This document shows positions 1,154-61,590 of a stretch of DNA of 64,000 bases, piece after piece. Positions within the stretch are counted from its first letter, which is position 1; each line of letters starts with the position of its first letter. The notes under the pieces were generated by a model. The model was given only the letters and a program-made list of their open reading frames with translations, was not told the DNA's origin and did no database searches. The position numbers and the translations under genes are program-made. Source of the stretch: Ilumatobacteraceae bacterium. Lineage in GTDB: Bacteria; Actinomycetota; Acidimicrobiia; Acidimicrobiales; Ilumatobacteraceae. Location of the stretch: positions 8,070-72,069 of the forward strand of contig JAEMQQ010000001.1 of assembly GCA_016463775.1 (NCBI GenBank), given 5' to 3'.

Positions 1154-1240
1154 TGGTGTCGAAGGGGGGACTTGAACCCCCACGCCCTTTCGAGCGCCAG
1201 CCCCTCAAGCTGGTGCGTCTGCCAATTTCGCCACTTCGAC
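1154..1240 (-). tRNA. tRNA-Leu (anticodon GAG), long variable arm, CCA encoded
   Basis: Reverse complement: GTCGAAG-TG-GCGAAATTGGCAGACGC-A-CCAGC-TTGAGGG-GCTGG-(variable arm CGCTCGAAAGGGCGT)-GGGGG-TTCAAGT-CCCCC-CTTCGAC-ACCA. The 7-bp acceptor stem is perfect, the T-loop is TTCAAGT, and the anticodon loop TT-GAG-GG gives GAG. Confidence 0.9.
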
Positions 1241-23653: not shown

Positions 23654-23683
23654 GCCTGACTGAGGCTATGACCCCCTACCGAG

Positions 23684-23766
23684 TGCCCGAGGTGGGAGTC
23701 GAACCCACACACCCTTTCAGGCAACGGATTTTGAGTCCGTCGCGTCTGCCATTTCGCCACTCGGGC
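23684..23766 (-). tRNA. tRNA-Leu (anticodon CAA), CCA not encoded
   Basis: Reverse complement: GCCCGAG-TG-GCGAAATGGCAGACGC-G-ACGGA-CTCAAAA-TCCGT-(variable arm)-GTGGG-TTCGACT-CCCAC-CTCGGGC-A. The acceptor stem is perfect and the anticodon loop CT-CAA-AA gives CAA. Confidence 0.9.
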
Positions 23767-32478: not shown

Positions 32479-33786
32479 TCAGAAACCAAAACGTGTCAAA
32501 AAATATCCAAGCAGACCATCGATGGGCACCCGCTCTTGGGTGGTCGTGTCACGGTCGCGGACCGTCACCGCGTTGTCGTTGAGCGTCTCAAAGTCGACGG
32601 TGACACAACATGGTGTTCCGATTTCATCCTGACGGCGGTAACGCCGGCCTATCGCCTGGGTTTCGTCGAAGTCACACATGTACCGCACCGCCAGCGTGCG
32701 AAAGACCTGTTCGGCCACCGGTGACAGCGTGTCTTTTTTGCTGAGCGGCAAGACGGCGATCTGGTACGGGGCGATCCGTGGATGCAGGCGCAACACCGTG
32801 CGTGTCTCGTCATTGACCACGTCTTCGTCGTACGCCGCCAACAAAAACGCGGCCATCGTGCGGTTGACACCCGCGGCAGGTTCGACGACGTACGGCACAT
32901 AACGCTCGTTGGTCGTCGGGTCGAAGTAGTCGAGGCGTTGGCCCGACTGTTTGGCATGTTGGGTGAGGTCATAGTCGGTGCGTTGCGCGATGCCCTCCAG
33001 TTCCCCCCAGCCCCAGGGAAACATGAATTCGATGTCGCAGGTACCCGCCGAGTAATGCGACAACTCGTCTTTGTCGTGCTCCCGCAGGCGCAGCATTTCG
33101 CGCGGAATACCGTGCGTCACGTACCACTCGAGGCGTTCGCTCTTCCAATAGGCGTACCACTGCGCGCTGTCTGCTGGTGGTACGAAGAATTCCAGTTCCA
33201 TTTGCTCGAATTCACGGGTGCGGAAGATGAAATTGCCCGGCGTGATCTCGTTGCGGAATGACTTCCCAACCTGGGCGATTCCGAACGGAGGCTTCTTGCG
33301 ACTCGTGGACAGCACGTTGGCAAAATTGACGAACATCCCCTGTGCCGTTTCCGGACGCAGGTACACGTCGGCACCCGCCCCCTCGACGGGCCCGGCCTGG
33401 GTTTTGAACATCAAATTGAAGGCCCGTGCAGCGGTGAACGTGCAACCCTGCATTTTTTCGGGACAATCACGACTCTCGAGTTGATCTTCGCGGAAGCGTC
33501 GCTGGCACACGGTGCAGTCCACGAGTGGATCACTGAAGTTCGCCAAGTGACCACTGGCCTCGAAGGTCTGCGGTGGGTTGAGAATGGCGGCGTCAATCAG
33601 TACGACATCGTTGCGGGTCTGCACCATTGCGCGAATCCAGGCTTCTTTGACGTTGCGCAGCATCAGCGCCCCGAGTGGGCCGTAGTCGTATGACGAGCGG
33701 AACCCGCCATAAATCTCGGCACTCGGGAAAGCGAAGCCCCGACGCTTCGCCAAGTTGACGATTTGCTCGAGATCCTTTGCTGGCAT
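32479..33786 (-). CDS. glyQS: glycine--tRNA ligase (single-chain dimeric type)
   Basis: N-terminus LAKRRGFAFPSAEIYGG...YDYGPLG, class II core FRNEITPGNFIFRTREFEQMELEFF, and a C-terminal anticodon-binding region. Confidence 0.9.
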   Translation of the reverse strand: MPAKDLEQIVNLAKRRGFAFPSAEIYGGFRSSYDYGPLGALMLRNVKEAWIRAMVQTRNDVVLIDAAILNPPQTFEASGHLANFSDPLVDCTVCQRRFREDQLESRDCPEKMQGCTFTAARAFNLMFKTQAGPVEGAGADVYLRPETAQGMFVNFANVLSTSRKKPPFGIAQVGKSFRNEITPGNFIFRTREFEQMELEFFVPPADSAQWYAYWKSERLEWYVTHGIPREMLRLREHDKDELSHYSAGTCDIEFMFPWGWGELEGIAQRTDYDLTQHAKQSGQRLDYFDPTTNERYVPYVVEPAAGVNRTMAAFLLAAYDEDVVNDETRTVLRLHPRIAPYQIAVLPLSKKDTLSPVAEQVFRTLAVRYMCDFDETQAIGRRYRRQDEIGTPCCVTVDFETLNDNAVTVRDRDTTTQERVPIDGLLGYFLTRFGF

Positions 33787-33803: not shown

Positions 33804-34535
33804 TCAGCCAAGTTGCGGGGTTTCAAATAGTGACGACGAACGAATGCGGCGTTCGAGATGATGCTCCATCGCGCGGCGCCCGATCGCGACAACTTCGCGC
33901 ACCACCGAGTCTGGCGTGTCGACACGTCCCAACGTCACGGCAATGCGCCCACCGAGCACGTCCTGTATCACGACGAGCGCCTCCGCCGACACCGTGCCAC
34001 CCCGACGGTGCGCCAGACACTGTGCACCACCGGCGCTCACGTCATAGGCGACCAACTCTTGCGATACGCCACACACGACGCAACGATCGACGCACGGCCC
34101 GACGCCTTCTTCTTCGAGGAGCCGAAACTGCAGGGCCGGCAGAATCAGCGGCTGATAGTGCACGTTCAGTTGCCTGAGTGCACCGACCAACATGCGGTAC
34201 AAATGTGGACTGGGCGACCGATCGTGGGACAACTGCTCGACGATCTCGCACATTGCCAAACCGTCGGTGCTCGCCTCGAGGTTCGCCCGGGTGGAGGTGG
34301 CGATCTCCACCAACTCCACCTGATTCACGATGTCGAGTTCGCGGCCGCGGTAGAGCTGCACCTGCACGTGGCTCATCGGCTCGAGGCGTGACCCGAAGCG
34401 CGAACTCGTCTTGCGCACGCCCTTGGCCACCGCGCGCACCTTGCCCGAGTCTTGGGTGATGAGCGTGACGATGCGGTCGGACTCGCCCAATTTATGGGTG
34501 CGCAGCACCACGCCGACGTCGCGATACACCGGCAT
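33804..34535 (-). CDS. recO: DNA repair protein RecO
   Basis: N-terminal OB region (GVVLRTHKLGESDRIVTLIT...GKVRAVAKGVRK) and zinc cysteines C..C...C. The start ATG shares 1 nt with the upstream stop (TAATG). Confidence 0.88.
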   Translation of the reverse strand: MPVYRDVGVVLRTHKLGESDRIVTLITQDSGKVRAVAKGVRKTSSRFGSRLEPMSHVQVQLYRGRELDIVNQVELVEIATSTRANLEASTDGLAMCEIVEQLSHDRSPSPHLYRMLVGALRQLNVHYQPLILPALQFRLLEEEGVGPCVDRCVVCGVSQELVAYDVSAGGAQCLAHRRGGTVSAEALVVIQDVLGGRIAVTLGRVDTPDSVVREVVAIGRRAMEHHLERRIRSSSLFETPQLG

Positions 34536-35134
34536 TATGAATCAACACCACCGAAACGGCGATCGCGGCGCGTGTAGTCGTTGATCGCCATCTCCAGATG
34601 CTCGGCATCGAGGTCGCGCCACGGAGTATCAAAGAACACGATCTCGGCATAGGCCAGTTCCCAGACGAGGGATTGGGGCATCGTGTCCGGTGGGCCGAGG
34701 ATGATGACGAGGTCGGGTTCTGCGGGTGCCGGCGCGCTCAGGGCGGCGGCCAGTCGGTCTTCGGTAATTTTCGTCACCTGCGCCACCCGCGTGGCTGCGT
34801 CGACCAGACGCTGCTTGCCGTCGCTGTTGAGATCGACGATCACGGTGACTCCGGCGGCCAGCACCACGACGCGCTCGGCATAGTGCACACCACCGCACGA
34901 ATCAACGAGCAGCGACCGCACATGGTCGGCAGACGACGGGCTCACGGTGTCGGGGCTGGCGGTGTCGGGGCTGGTCGTGGCCGGAATGATCGTCACCCAC
35001 GCAGCCCCACCGGTCTTGACGGCTTGCGCAACCACGGCAATCCGTTGTTGCCAGTCGGCAACCGACGAATTCGCCCAATCGCGCAACGAGCCGGCACACA
35101 ACATCACGTGCGACAGTGTCGAGGATGCAGTCAC
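34535..35134 (-). CDS. cis-prenyltransferase (UPPS)-fold paralog with a degenerate active site and a retained C-terminal RFGG tail
   Basis: Aligns with the UppS fold. SHVMLCAGSLRDWA replaces H.A.IMDGNGRWA. DLVIILGPPDTMPQSLVWELAYAEIVFFDTPWRDLD...DYTRRDRRFGGVDS replaces DL.IRT.GE.R.SNFLLWQ..YAE..F....WPDF...RERRFGG. GTG start with GAGGA 7 nt upstream. Confidence 0.7.
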   Translation of the reverse strand: MTASSTLSHVMLCAGSLRDWANSSVADWQQRIAVVAQAVKTGGAAWVTIIPATTSPDTASPDTVSPSSADHVRSLLVDSCGGVHYAERVVVLAAGVTVIVDLNSDGKQRLVDAATRVAQVTKITEDRLAAALSAPAPAEPDLVIILGPPDTMPQSLVWELAYAEIVFFDTPWRDLDAEHLEMAINDYTRRDRRFGGVDS

Positions 35135-35166
35135 CTCTCCATCCTCGCATTTGCAAGTAGTTTCAG

Positions 35167-35874
35167 TTGCACATCATGGGTGTATCTGGCGTCGCCCCAC
35201 CCATCATTGGCCCGCACGTGGCGTGCATCATGGACGGCAACGGTCGCTGGGCCAAACGGCGTGGTCTGCCCCGCACAGCCGGCCACACCGCCGGTGAAGA
35301 AGCGCTTGCAATGACCGTGCGTAATGCAGCACAACGCGGCGTCGGCTGGCTGACAGTCTTTGGTTTCAGCACAGAAAACTGGGTGCGTCCGGCATCCGAG
35401 GTGCGTCACATACTTGGTTTGCACCGCAAGTTATTCGGACGTATTAAAGACCTGAATGAGAACAACGTCCGTGTCAATTGGATCGGGCGGCCGTTCGATG
35501 AGCCCGGATCTCGCACACCGAGCGCGATACAAAAGGCAATCGCGCAGGCCATCGACGACACGAAGCACAACACCGGCATGATGCTCACCGTGGCGTTCGA
35601 CTACGGCAGTCGTGCCGAGATTACCCGTGCCGCACGACGCGCCGCCGAACACAACGACCCGATCTCCGTCGCGACGCTGGCCGACGAACTGTACGACTCG
35701 CGACTTCCCCCGGTTGACCTGCTCGTGCGCACTTCGGGTGAAAGTCGCATTTCGAACTTTCTGTTGTGGCAGTCAACGTCGGCCCGCGTGTACTTCACCG
35801 ATTGCTCGTGGCCCGACTTTGATGCCCACCAGTTGGATCAGGCTCTGGCACTGCTGCGGCGTAGCCCCGCATGA
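35167..35874 (+). CDS. uppS: isoprenyl transferase (undecaprenyl/decaprenyl diphosphate synthase family), catalytic copy, no C-terminal RXG
   Basis: Motifs HVACIMDGNGRWA, FGFSTENW, RTSGESRISNFLLWQ, YFTDCSWPDFD. The protein ends ...ALALLRRSPA. The real start may be ATG 35176 (the track start is a TTG). The stop overlaps the dinG start (ATGA). Confidence 0.9.
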   Translation: MHIMGVSGVAPPIIGPHVACIMDGNGRWAKRRGLPRTAGHTAGEEALAMTVRNAAQRGVGWLTVFGFSTENWVRPASEVRHILGLHRKLFGRIKDLNENNVRVNWIGRPFDEPGSRTPSAIQKAIAQAIDDTKHNTGMMLTVAFDYGSRAEITRAARRAAEHNDPISVATLADELYDSRLPPVDLLVRTSGESRISNFLLWQSTSARVYFTDCSWPDFDAHQLDQALALLRRSPA

Positions 35875-37757
35875 CGCCAGCCGCCCAAAAAGCGTCCGGC
35901 CTACTCGAACGAGTCGTCGCCCTCCTGCCCCACGCCGAGCAGCGTGATGGCCAAACCGACATGGTGCAGCATGTCGCCGATGCCATTGACACCGGTTCCT
36001 CGGTCGTCGTGCAGGCCGGTACTGGTACGGGCAAGACGCTCGGTTATCTGGTGCCGATACTGGCCGCCGGTCAGACGGCGATCATCGCCACCTACACCAA
36101 GGCGCTGCAAGACCAACTCGCCAGCGTCGATCTGCCGCTGCTGCAGGCTGCGTGCGCAGCAGATGACGACTTGGCATTCACGTGGGCGGTGTTGAAGGGT
36201 CGCAACAACTACGTCTGTCGTCAACGTGTGTCAGAAATCGAAACCGGCCATGACCAACTACCGCTGACTGACGTACCGCGCGACGTCGCGCGCGAAATTC
36301 GTCAACTCGTCGAATGGACGGCGACCACCCCGAGCGGTGAGATCTCCGATGTGCCCTTCATCTTCGGGGATGCAGCCTGGCGCAAAGTGAGCCTCGGTTC
36401 CGACGAATGCCCGGGGGCCAGCAAGTGTCAATTCGGTGAGACATGCTTTACCGAACGGGCGCGTGAAAATGCCGGGAATGCCAACGTGGTGGTGGTCAAC
36501 TTCACGCTGTACGGGCTCGACCTCGAACAAGAGCGCCGGTTCCTCCCCGATCATGATGTCGTCGTGTTCGATGAGGTCCATGAATTGGAGGACGTCATCA
36601 GCGACACGTCGTCGGCCACGATCACCGCCCGCATGCTGGCAGCGGCCGCCGAAACTGCGCGGGCCGCCATGACCAGCCAAAAACTGCCGAACGCACTCAA
36701 CAAATCCGCCAAGGAACTCGACGAAGTACTCGGTCGATATGCAGGTCAACGCCTGAGCCAACCATTACCGACCGACATCGACGGCACGTTGCGTAATGCC
36801 AACACCCAATGCGGGGAGATTCTCGAGAAGTTGCGGGCCGCCACCAACGAAACACCCGAGCAGCTCCGCGCCGCCTCAGCCATCGGGCGAATGGTCGATG
36901 CGCTGAACAAGGTGCTCATTCCCGGCTCGAACGTGGTTGCCTTCGTTACCGATGTGCGGGGGGCCCCGCGACTGACGGCAGCACCCAAACGTGTCGACCA
37001 TGTGCTGAGCTGCGTGTGGGCCGATACCACGGCGATTCTGACGAGTGCCACGATTCCGCCAGGGCTTCCCCAGCGCCTCGGTCTGCCTGTGGCTGCCGAC
37101 GACATCATTCGGTTACCGAGCCCGTTCGACTACAAGCGCCAGTCGCTGCTCTACCTCGCCGACGATCTGCCGGTGCCGAACGCACCCGACCGCGGCCCGC
37201 GACTCCAGGAACGAATTCGTGAACTCATCACGATGTCCGACGGGTCGGCACTGGTCTTGTTCACCAGTTGGACGGTGCTGCGCGATACGGCGGCCGCCCT
37301 CGACGGTCAACTGGGTGACGGCATCACGATGTACGTGCAGGACGACATGCCCAAGAAAGCGCTGCTCGATGCGTTCCGTACGAACACCAAGTCGTGCCTG
37401 TTCGCCACACGCGGCTTTTTTCAGGGCGTCGACGTTCCTGGTGACGCGTTGCGTTTGGTGATCATCGACAAGGTGCCGTTCCCGGCGATGAACGACCCGT
37501 TGCTCGACGCCCGACGCGAGGACGTCGGCGACCGATCGTTCATGGTCATCGACGTGCCGATCGCAGCAGCGGCACTCGCGCAGGCTGCCGGTCGATTGAT
37601 TCGAACGGCGACCGACCACGGGGTCGTTGCGATACTCGACCCACGGTTGTCCCAGAAGCGCTACAAGAGTGCCGTACTCAGCGGCGTGCAGCATTTGCCC
37701 GAGACGAGTCGTCTCGTGGAGGTCGAGGATTTCTTCGCCAAGCGGTCAGTTGCCTGA
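35871..37757 (+). CDS. dinG: ATP-dependent DNA helicase, DinG/XPD family
   Basis: Walker A VQAGTGTGKT, DEAH-like VVFDEVHELED, four Cys consistent with the XPD-family Fe-S insert (YVCRQR...SDECPGASKCQFGETC), and C-terminal helicase motifs (FFQGVDVPG, QAAGRLIR). Confidence 0.82.
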   Translation: MTPAAQKASGLLERVVALLPHAEQRDGQTDMVQHVADAIDTGSSVVVQAGTGTGKTLGYLVPILAAGQTAIIATYTKALQDQLASVDLPLLQAACAADDDLAFTWAVLKGRNNYVCRQRVSEIETGHDQLPLTDVPRDVAREIRQLVEWTATTPSGEISDVPFIFGDAAWRKVSLGSDECPGASKCQFGETCFTERARENAGNANVVVVNFTLYGLDLEQERRFLPDHDVVVFDEVHELEDVISDTSSATITARMLAAAAETARAAMTSQKLPNALNKSAKELDEVLGRYAGQRLSQPLPTDIDGTLRNANTQCGEILEKLRAATNETPEQLRAASAIGRMVDALNKVLIPGSNVVAFVTDVRGAPRLTAAPKRVDHVLSCVWADTTAILTSATIPPGLPQRLGLPVAADDIIRLPSPFDYKRQSLLYLADDLPVPNAPDRGPRLQERIRELITMSDGSALVLFTSWTVLRDTAAALDGQLGDGITMYVQDDMPKKALLDAFRTNTKSCLFATRGFFQGVDVPGDALRLVIIDKVPFPAMNDPLLDARREDVGDRSFMVIDVPIAAAALAQAAGRLIRTATDHGVVAILDPRLSQKRYKSAVLSGVQHLPETSRLVEVEDFFAKRSVA

Positions 37758-38435
37758 TTTGAATCGATAGCCAAGACCCCGCGCAGTCGTGATGAACACC
37801 GGCTCGTTGGGGCTGTCCTCCAGTTTTACGCGCAGTCGGCGAATGTGGGCGTCGACCAACCGACTGTCACCCAGATATTCGTAGCCCCAGACGCGTTCAA
37901 GTAGTTGATCGCGGCTCAACACCACGTTGGGGTGATCGGCAAACTCGATGAGCAATCGCAACTCGGTTTTGGTGAGCGCCAGTTCGACACCACCCTTCAG
38001 CGCGATGCCGGCCTCACGGCGTAATTCGATGTCGCCGAATCGCGAGATGTCCGGCATGCGTCCCGAGGTTTCCCGCACGAGACGCCGCAATGAAGCCCGA
38101 ATTCGCGCCGCGAGTTCTTTCGTGTTGACGGGCTTCGTCAGATAGTCGTCCGCCCCTGCCTCGAGACCCGCCACCAAATCGTGGGTGTCGGCCTGCGCCG
38201 TGACCATGATGATCGGCACGCTGCTCTTCAGGCGGATCTCACGACAGACCTCGAACCCGGAGAGATCGGGCAGTCGCAGGTCGAGCAGCACCAGATCTGG
38301 TTGCTCGCTGAGCACCATTGCCAACCCGACCCGTCCGTTCGGTGCCGCCACCACGTCGTAGCCCTCATCTTCGAGCGCCAACCCGAGCGCCACCCGAATG
38401 CTCGGGTCGTCTTCGATCAACAGAATCTTTGCCAT
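37746..38435 (-). CDS. OmpR/PhoB-family response regulator (MtrA-like)
   Basis: Receiver MAKILLIEDDP...LLDLRLPDLSGFEVC...TAQADT..., and winged helix ...VDAHIRRLRVKLE...FITTARGLGYRF. Start taken as ATG 38435. Confidence 0.9.
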   Translation of the reverse strand: MAKILLIEDDPSIRVALGLALEDEGYDVVAAPNGRVGLAMVLSEQPDLVLLDLRLPDLSGFEVCREIRLKSSVPIIMVTAQADTHDLVAGLEAGADDYLTKPVNTKELAARIRASLRRLVRETSGRMPDISRFGDIELRREAGIALKGGVELALTKTELRLLIEFADHPNVVLSRDQLLERVWGYEYLGDSRLVDAHIRRLRVKLEDSPNEPVFITTARGLGYRFKSGN

Positions 38436-38522
38436 ACCCGTGCAGTCTGCCAAGTTCGGCGGCTTTGTTACACAAAACGCACAGGTTCAGCACCGGTACG
38501 TCAAACGCATGGGGCATTCTTG

Positions 38523-61337: not shown

Positions 61338-61407
61338 AGGGCACAGAATAGACCTGCCCATTGCTTCCGTCGTCAGTGGGGTGTGTACTACGCTCAAAGA
61401 GCCATAG

Positions 61408-61590
61408 TTATCTCGGGAGAGTGACCTGCACCGCCAGTGCGTCGTCACACCGAAGGAGCAACCACCCCGGAACCTCTCAGGTACCCGAACCGAGATAATT
61501 GGCAACGCTGGAAAGCGGGGAGACCGACATCTCCTCCACCGACGGGGAAAAGCGGCTCGCCGCTGAAGCTCTCAGGTGCCAAAGACAGCT
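61408..61590 (+). promoter_or_regulatory. tandem glycine riboswitch (two aptamers) in the gcvP leader
   Basis: Aptamer 1 (61408..61498): P1 ttatctcgg/ccgagataa, GGGAGAG, CACCGAAGGAGCAA, CTCTCAGGTA...GAAC. Aptamer 2 (about 61507..61590): CTGGAAAG, GGGGAGA, CACCGACGGGGAAA, CTCTCAGGTGCCAAAGACAG. These match the conserved glycine-riboswitch cores. Confidence 0.88.

Follow-up and report, generated by a model that had tools for sequence, protein, structure and literature searches.

The 64,000-nucleotide stretch of DNA analysed here, referred to as the window, comes from the genome assembly of an Ilumatobacteraceae bacterium (Actinomycetota, Acidimicrobiia; GCA_016463775.1, contig JAEMQQ010000001.1, positions 8,070 to 72,069 of the forward strand). 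Near its middle lie two divergent genes, A and B, whose products share the fold of undecaprenyl diphosphate synthase (UPPS, encoded by uppS), a cis-prenyltransferase. The genes stand head to head, with starts 32 or 41 nt apart according to the start codon taken for A, as established from the list of open reading frames (ORFs) and by direct reading. A retains the catalytic boxes of the family and has no RXG motif at its C-terminus, and B has lost the catalytic residues and retains RXG. An earlier reading of the letters alone (the original prediction) took the pair for a heteromeric enzyme, and our analysis of sequences from related genomes suggests that A and B are probably the two subunits of a heterodimeric cis-prenyltransferase.

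The product of A is matched by the Pfam profile PF01255 from position 1 to position 209 of 219 (E = 6.6e-67), so that the last 10 profile positions are missing. The NCBIfam uppS equivalog model TIGR00055 matches it over positions 3-218 of 228 with 208.1 bits, the curated cut-off being 109.55 bits; A thus qualifies by score as an UppS equivalog but, unlike each subunit of a homodimeric enzyme, has no RXG of its own. All catalytic boxes are present (P-loop HVACIMDGNGRWA, FGFSTENW, RTSGESRISNFLLWQ and WPDFD), and the set includes DGNGRW, FSTENW and RTSGESRISNF. Residues D23-W28 comprise the catalytic Asp and the allylic-diphosphate-binding loop and are equivalent to D26-W31 of the E. coli enzyme; this P-loop is invariant in 16 aligned representative orthologues, and the motif is present in all 76 syntenic ones. 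The C-terminus reads ...WPDFDAHQLDQALALLRRSPA and stops at +20 after the W of WPDF, the Arg of RXG being expected at +21. No RFGG follows the A stop in any of three frames over the approximately 230 nt read (to 36101), which rules out a frameshift. The best solved relative is the dodecaprenyl diphosphate synthase of Thermobifida fusca (7CPN, E = 2.7e-55), to which the alignment stops at chain residue 255, about nine residues before the RXG region (to approximately residue 264). The closest solved relatives are long-chain enzymes and not short-chain (Z)-farnesyl diphosphate (Z-FPP) synthase. One homologue (P0073) is 100% identical to A over 232 aa, and the ATG at 35176, which yields a protein of this length, is probably the start of A in the public annotation.

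In the product of B, PF01255 matches positions 113-219 of 219 only, the end of the profile included (E = 1.7e-13), TIGR00055 scores 37.9 bits, which is under the cut-off, and identity to A is approximately 18-25%. At the P-loop B reads SHVMLCAGSLRDWA, with Gly in place of the catalytic Asp, Leu in place of Asn and Asp in place of Arg. Across the B family the position of Asp26 is occupied by Gly15, that of Asn28 is variable and that of Arg30 holds Asp or Glu. Both the FSxENW and the RTGGExR boxes are lost, their places being taken by IIPATTSP and ILGPPDTMPQSL. The C-terminus (...YTRRDRRFGGVDS) ends in RRDRRFGGVDS, and a profile of the B family places RRDRRFGG exactly on RERRFGG of E. coli UPPS. 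Residues R190, R192, R193, F194, G195 and G196 are invariant among 26 aligned family members, and constraint in B is concentrated in this tail and in the block PDLVxxLGxxxxxPxSLVWELAYxExVF...W. An AlphaFold2 model of B, made with 26 family members, has a predicted local distance difference test score (pLDDT) of 86.9 overall and a mean of 53 for the last 9 residues; predicted disorder of the tail in a monomer model is as expected of a segment that orders on a partner. Foldseek matched the model over its full length to UPPS, plant NDPS1 and human NgBR (TM 0.5-0.65). The first beta-strand is preceded by 8 residues, and B is without an N-terminal membrane-anchoring region.

A second signature is divided between the two proteins in the same way. 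In canonical enzymes LLWQ is followed by x-A-Y-[S/A]-E, with the Tyr and Glu present in 74/74, and both residues of this AYAE motif are also found in 63/63 B proteins and in 37/37 members of a related family, B2, that is described below. The corresponding stretch of A-type proteins is x-A-x-A-R: no Tyr remains, and the place of the Glu is taken by Arg in 116 of 120 and by Lys or Gln in the remaining 4. Being kept in B, B2 and canonical enzymes and lost in A, these residues accompany the RXG tail rather than the active site, and we infer that they may support the contribution of the tail-bearing subunit.

Genome context was examined by scanning one genome per GTDB species and fetching the best 80 of 473 places with B relatives. 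The figure of 473 is an upper bound, since the search patterns may be matched by the C-termini of canonical UppS as well. Counts of A tails and of synteny refer to the 76 loci in which the contig is long enough on both sides. Both A and B are present in all 76, and a tail-less A is adjacent to B also in the distant loci L081-L084. With B as the query, 64 full-length relatives of approximately 190 aa (37-95% identity) were recovered, those with names coming from Ilumatobacteraceae, Acidimicrobiia or Actinomycetota metagenome-assembled genomes, and an exhaustive profile search with the B family against 1.84 billion representatives yielded 65 clusters at E<=1e-30. B orthologues end in RR.RR[F/Y]G[G/S].D[S/T] at constant length in 80/80 cases; over 76 species, the length of the tail is identical and its entropy is zero at the positions of four Arg residues, a Gly and an Asp. 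RXG is missing from all of the best 120 A homologues (73-100% identity), which end 17-28 residues past the W of WPDF, that W counted. It is also missing from 75 of the 76 syntenic A orthologues, in which the median tail is 18 residues from the same W, and beyond +15 the tail of A is variable in length and has an entropy of 2-3 bits per column.

The gene order dinG<-A|B->recO->glyS is kept across the Ilumatobacteraceae/acIV Acidimicrobiia, freshwater actinobacteria that are widespread. B is followed by recO in 80/80 loci, and glyS is next in 78, the other two contigs ending before it; the glyS counterparts are 75-99% identical, and those in related loci carry Pfam tRNA-synt_2b and HGTP_anticodon. 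Wherever the contig reaches, A and dinG lie on the strand opposite B, with dinG 3' of A in nearly all such loci. A canonical uppS is found in the recO slot of none of the 80 B loci. A and B are directly head to head in 73 of the 76 loci that hold both, an arrangement that persists even at 37% identity of B. Measured in 73 species, the conserved His codons of the two genes are separated by 77-135 nt in 66 species, by 163-219 nt in four more and by approximately 2.3 kb in three, so that the pair is tightly spaced in nearly all. At its shortest, 77-80 nt in L003, L014, L021 and L023, this separation implies almost no intergenic DNA. In L025, L046 and L056 an insertion of about 2.3 kb parts A from B and encodes, on the strand of B, a 694-aa multi-pass membrane protein; that of L025 has no Pfam match. 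Two database proteins, P0065 (177 aa, on a 752-bp contig) and P0287 (220 aa), join a short-chain dehydrogenase/reductase or the N-terminus of RecO to the C-terminal end of B and look like assembly or gene-calling chimeras, not true fusions.

Ratios of nonsynonymous to synonymous substitution (dN/dS), estimated by the Nei-Gojobori method for ten informative species pairs, were 0.00-0.17 for B, 0.01-0.16 for A and 0.01-0.09 for recO. B is a functioning gene under purifying selection similar to that acting on A. Its rate of evolution is about 2.5 times that of A (mean corrected distances of 0.77 and 0.31). With neighbouring genes controlled for, the distances of A and those of B gave a partial correlation of 0.51, the top value for either gene and exceeded only by that of recO with dinG. 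Pairwise distances are not independent and this comparison is exploratory, so no significance is claimed for the covariation of rates, which is consistent with a heterodimer.

Insight into the origin of the pair came from the exhaustive search, which also returned the second dead-looking family, B2, from Acidimicrobiales. Its P-loop reads HVAWVAGGxxRW, it is without FSxENW, its RTGGDRRVPDL box is partly decayed and its tail is RRDRRYGGLV. Among the matches listed, 72 of 120 are canonical Acidimicrobiales UppS proteins with both the catalytic boxes and RXG, and one of these (P0450) is encoded in L087 directly 5' of recO->glyS. B2 occupies the same slot, in the order era, dinG(-), B2, a small ORF, recO, a radical S-adenosylmethionine gene and glyS. 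In Mycobacterium tuberculosis, too, recO and uppS are adjacent, a neighbourhood comparable to that of B and recO. In a neighbour-joining tree the grouping of canonical, B2 and B proteins has 100% bootstrap support, as does that of B2 with B, and B is nested among B2; A forms a separate clade, also at 100%. A is 43-46% identical to canonical Acidimicrobiales enzymes, the same as to E. coli UppS. The tree and the shared recO slot thus indicate that B is the degenerated ancestral recO-linked uppS, reached via B2. Judged by this tree, A is from a cis-prenyltransferase lineage other than that of B, and B is no recent copy of A.

Two other origins for B were considered. Orthology with NgBR/Nus1 was rejected: with the B profile, E. 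coli UPPS scores 3e-20 but NUS1 only 2e-5, and the clade of B, B2 and canonical Acidimicrobiales UppS (100% bootstrap) also speaks against it. Derivation from a short-chain Z-FPP synthase of the Rv1086 type is unsupported, with 2VG1 hit at 2e-7 as against 3e-20 for E. coli UPPS. As a separate observation, B2 lineages have a small ORF of 66-123 aa, absent from the window, that is translationally coupled between B2 and recO and has no Pfam match. Its product contains a conserved hairpin of two transmembrane segments (..GVV.LG.LCW.AA.G.TA....L.TV.AL.VLVGGGNWL.GRS), behind which most members have a tail rich in proline. This small protein could be a membrane anchor for B2, a role analogous to that of the transmembrane region in NgBR.

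Coordinates of the genes, motifs and neighbouring features, in the window unless a related locus is named
Feature	Sequence	Coordinates	Strand	Remarks
Gene B	window	34535..35134	-	199 aa, GTG start; dead cis-prenyltransferase-fold protein
Gene A	window	35167 (TTG) or 35176 (ATG)..35874	+	235 or 232 aa; UppS-type cis-prenyltransferase
P-loop codons of A, D23-G-N-G-R-W28	window	35233..35250	+	direct sequence reading
RXG codons of B, R193-F194-G195	window	34550..34558	-	inside the tail R189-R-D-R-R-F-G-G-V-D-S199
Divergent A/B intergenic region	window	35135..35175	.	32 nt to TTG, 41 nt to ATG
recO	window	33804..34535	-	Pfam RecO_N and RecO_C; 3' neighbour of B
DinG/XPD-like helicase	window	35871..37757	+	Pfam Helicase_C_2, DEAD and DEAD_2; 3' of A
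glyS, glycyl-tRNA synthetase (class II)	window	32479..33786	-	ORF and translation; ends the B-recO-glyS string
OmpR-type response regulator ORF	window	37746..38453	-	convergent with the DinG-like helicase; 3' ends overlap by about 12 nt
Tandem glycine riboswitch	window	61404..61589	+	two RF00504 aptamers, 61.5 and 42 bits
tRNA-Leu	window	1154..1240	-	anticodon GAG
tRNA-Leu	window	23683..23766	-	anticodon CAA
694-aa membrane protein gene between A and B	L025	3815..5899	+	
Small ORF between B2 and recO	L085	8699..8959		
Small ORF between B2 and recO	L086	8771..9058		
Small ORF between B2 and recO	L088	10789..11094		
Small ORF between B2 and recO	L089	10639..10908		
Small ORF between B2 and recO	L090	10642..11013		
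Small ORF between B2 and recO	L091	7966..8217		
Small ORF between B2 and recO	L092	10702..10914		
Small ORF between B2 and recO	L093	10732..10932		

Each of the two genes is tightly joined to the gene on its 3' side. The B stop and recO start overlap in TAATG (34533-34537), so that recO is translationally coupled to B, and the A stop and helicase start overlap in ATGA (35871-35874), again with translational coupling. A GAGGA Shine-Dalgarno-like element lies 7 nt 5' of the GTG of B, and no obvious one precedes A. Scanning of 34800-35500 for sigma-70 promoters gave no match to the consensus; together with the tiny gap between the genes, this suggests leaderless transcripts or promoters inside the coding sequence of the neighbour. 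A hidden Markov model scan of the six-frame translation found no third ORF with the cis-prenyltransferase fold in the 64-kb window. The remaining features of the window, a response regulator ORF, a tandem glycine riboswitch and two tRNA-Leu genes, are given in the table.

What the original prediction had observed in the sequence was confirmed in full, and its reading of the pair is supported, with the reservations given below. The head-to-head arrangement with a gap of 32-41 nt, the overlap of the A stop with the dinG start and the coupling of B to recO follow from the ORF list and the sequence itself. The UPPS fold of both proteins is confirmed by Pfam for A and B, by the matches to solved structures and by the AlphaFold2 model of B with Foldseek. 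That A keeps its catalytic boxes and stops before RXG agrees with the sequence, PF01255 and the 7CPN alignment, with no RFGG downstream; that B has lost the Asp, Asn and Arg of the P-loop along with FSxENW and RTGGExR and kept the RXG tail is seen in the alignment. It had also raised the possibilities that orthologues of A might carry a normal tail and that B might be a decaying duplicate; the truncation recurs in the homologues and syntenic orthologues counted above, and B, with its low dN/dS, fixed length and preserved tail, is not decaying.

A mechanism for the proposed enzyme can be drawn from published cis-prenyltransferase structures. In all of those with an ordered RXG, this segment spans the interface of the dimer and seals the partner's homoallylic site, which binds isopentenyl diphosphate (IPP); the backbone amides of X and G bind the beta-phosphate of IPP, and the Arg touches a Mg-bound water. 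Since RXG completes the active site of the partner in trans, a heterodimer of A and B is the best explanation of the pair. A would hold the sole functional active site, comprising the P-loop Asp, FSxENW and RTSGExRxSNF, and B, itself without catalysis, would keep the dimer-forming C-terminal half and the RRFGG tail and donate this tail to A in trans. As A is without RXG, an A2 homodimer would have two incomplete IPP sites and an AB heterodimer one complete site. Purified DHDDS, the eukaryotic heteromer's catalytic subunit, has very little activity alone (10.1101/2020.06.03.132209), and mutation of the RXG glycine cripples the enzymes of humans, Giardia, E. coli and archaea (10.1101/139675). 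The product of A and B would most probably be a polyprenyl diphosphate of C50-C55, from which the cell-wall lipid carrier is made. Heterodimer formation, completion of the active site in trans, product length and essentiality are what we infer from comparison of the sequences.

The evolutionary history that may have produced this arrangement begins with an ancestral uppS 5' of recO, which would have lost catalysis stepwise, passing through a stage represented by B2 and ending in B. Another cis-prenyltransferase lineage, A, would have taken over catalysis and lost its own tail, and these complementary losses would lock the two proteins together. The original prediction had called the enzyme 'split', which is the wrong word; the pattern is one of complementary degeneration of two genes, B being a former recO-linked uppS and A coming from a separate lineage, and not one of fission. 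Whether the Acidimicrobiia have thereby independently re-invented a two-subunit cis-prenyltransferase, with A and B serving as the only, and essential, lipid-carrier synthase of acIV/Ilumatobacteraceae, is a broader proposition to which we would give roughly even chances.

An alternative explanation is that A is a self-sufficient homodimeric UPP synthase without RXG and that the role of B, a pseudoenzyme, lies elsewhere: B might bind polyprenyl or isoprenyl diphosphates, act as a regulator or serve some function tied to the recO operon. We consider this unlikely, while recognizing that several observations favour it or count against a heterodimer. An active RXG-less enzyme, treated by its authors as of homodimer type, is documented, namely MM_0014 of Methanosarcina mazei (PMC8131916), and loss of RXG alone is thus no proof of dependence on a partner. 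B is co-transcribed with recO and not with A. The dead B2 gene stands without an adjacent catalytic gene, none having been found within 8-10 kb in eight loci, and adjacency of a dead and a catalytic gene is therefore not universal. The one exception among the 76 syntenic A orthologues (L010) ends in ...LVRRGT, with R-R-G four residues before the canonical register. A self-sufficient A, however, leaves unexplained why absolute constraint in B is confined to the RXG tail and the C-terminal half, taken as the half that forms the dimer interface, and why A lost RXG and the AYAE Tyr and Glu while B retained them, a coincidence that holds over 76 species. MM_0014, which resembles A in being a catalytically competent cis-prenyltransferase without RXG, keeps an ordered C-terminal TLGG tail that touches the substrates (PMC8131916), whereas A has only a short tail of variable sequence and length; unlike MM_0014, A also has a conserved, RXG-bearing dead partner alongside. 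Finally, when other Acidimicrobiales have a canonical enzyme in the slot of B, it invariably combines the catalytic boxes with RXG.

A heteromer of A and B could instead make another polyprenyl, with a canonical uppS elsewhere in the genome making undecaprenyl diphosphate. Many Actinomycetota have two cis-prenyltransferases with different products, such as Rv1086 and Rv2361c (PMC7839719), and a further point that tells against our proposal is that the search for another uppS covered only 64 kb of the genome. We nevertheless regard this explanation as quite improbable: B sits in the ancestral recO-adjacent uppS slot, in which no canonical gene occurs in 80 loci, and A passes the TIGR00055 uppS cut-off and has long-chain enzymes as its best solved relatives. 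The small size of acIV genomes also counts against it. The possibility that B is an unexpressed, decaying duplicate, or that the truncation of A is a local sequencing or assembly error, or both, has no support other than the impression that the lost motifs make at first sight and deserves virtually no credence. The comparative data on A and B already refute it, through the dN/dS of 0.00-0.17, the intact B reading frame of constant length with a tail kept in 80 species, the 65 B clusters at E<=1e-30 from the exhaustive search and the repetition of the A truncation in 120/120 independent homologues.

If A and B do form one enzyme, the textbook rule that bacterial cis-prenyltransferases are homodimeric would be overturned, and the combination of a catalytic subunit with an RXG donor would be a recurrent evolutionary outcome of this fold and not a single invention. 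The Acidimicrobiales would then offer a living series, from canonical UppS in the recO slot through B2 to a dead B with an adjacent tail-less A, that allows direct tests, by reconstruction and by mixing of subunits, of how obligate heteromers evolve by complementary degeneration. There are also consequences for annotation, since automated pipelines label A as a complete 'polyprenyl diphosphate synthase' and B 'UPP synthase family protein', and metabolic reconstructions of abundant freshwater actinobacteria would overlook the dependence of A on B. UPPS is an antibiotic target, for which a natural variant with one active site per dimer would be a useful comparator.

Among known systems, the eukaryotic complex of DHDDS (Rer2/Srt1) with NgBR (NUS1/Nus1) offers close parallels. 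DHDDS, like A, has all active-site residues and no RXG; NgBR, like B, has the cis-prenyltransferase fold, has lost the catalytic residues and ends in an RXG that, in NgBR, completes the IPP site of the partner in trans. The accessory subunit of this complex resembles cis-prenyltransferases in its C-terminal half only (PMC7839719), as does B, and, according to one report (PMC12998183), the catalytic subunit of known heteromers is highly conserved and the accessory subunit less so, which parallels the faster evolution of B. The differences are that B appears independent in origin and has no N-terminal transmembrane region, that A ends right after the last core helix and has no C-terminal helix-turn-helix clamp of the DHDDS type, that the A and B genes are adjacent and divergent, and that the product is presumably of medium and not of long chain length.

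The archaeal heteromers (MM_1083/MM_0618 of M. mazei, MaUPPS-A/B of M. acetivorans and Af1219/Af0707 of Archaeoglobus fulgidus) share with A and B a prokaryotic, cytoplasmic setting, a catalytic subunit without RXG and a partner that keeps it. MaUPPS-B has no predicted transmembrane domain. These enzymes make medium-chain precursors of glycosyl carriers (C40-C60; 8-12 isoprene units), and their activity is crippled by mutation of the RXG glycine. They belong to another domain of life, whereas B derives from a bacterial recO-linked uppS; the archaeal complexes have been shown experimentally, whereas that of A and B is predicted from sequence.

The homodimeric UppS of E. coli, Rv2361c of M. tuberculosis and the T. 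fusca enzyme have the fold and catalytic residues seen in A; each subunit of the bacterial homodimers carries both an active site and RXG, which here are divided between A and B. Bacterial heptaprenyl and hexaprenyl diphosphate synthases, which are trans-prenyltransferases, do need two distinct subunits for activity (PMC13586052). Their fold (DDxxD) and their small subunit are unrelated to those described here, however, and the resemblance is one of analogy only. Reviews describe heteromeric cis-prenyltransferases in eukaryotes and some archaea and homodimers in bacteria, primary papers are in agreement, and according to a 2026 review every characterised bacterial cis-prenyltransferase is homomeric. 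The original prediction had supposed a bacterial version to be undescribed, and our search of the literature, with subscription-only papers outside its scope, likewise found no report of one. The architecture of a catalytic subunit with an RXG donor is thus known; on the evidence of the sequences compared here, what is new is its occurrence in bacteria, its independent origin and the preservation of intermediates.

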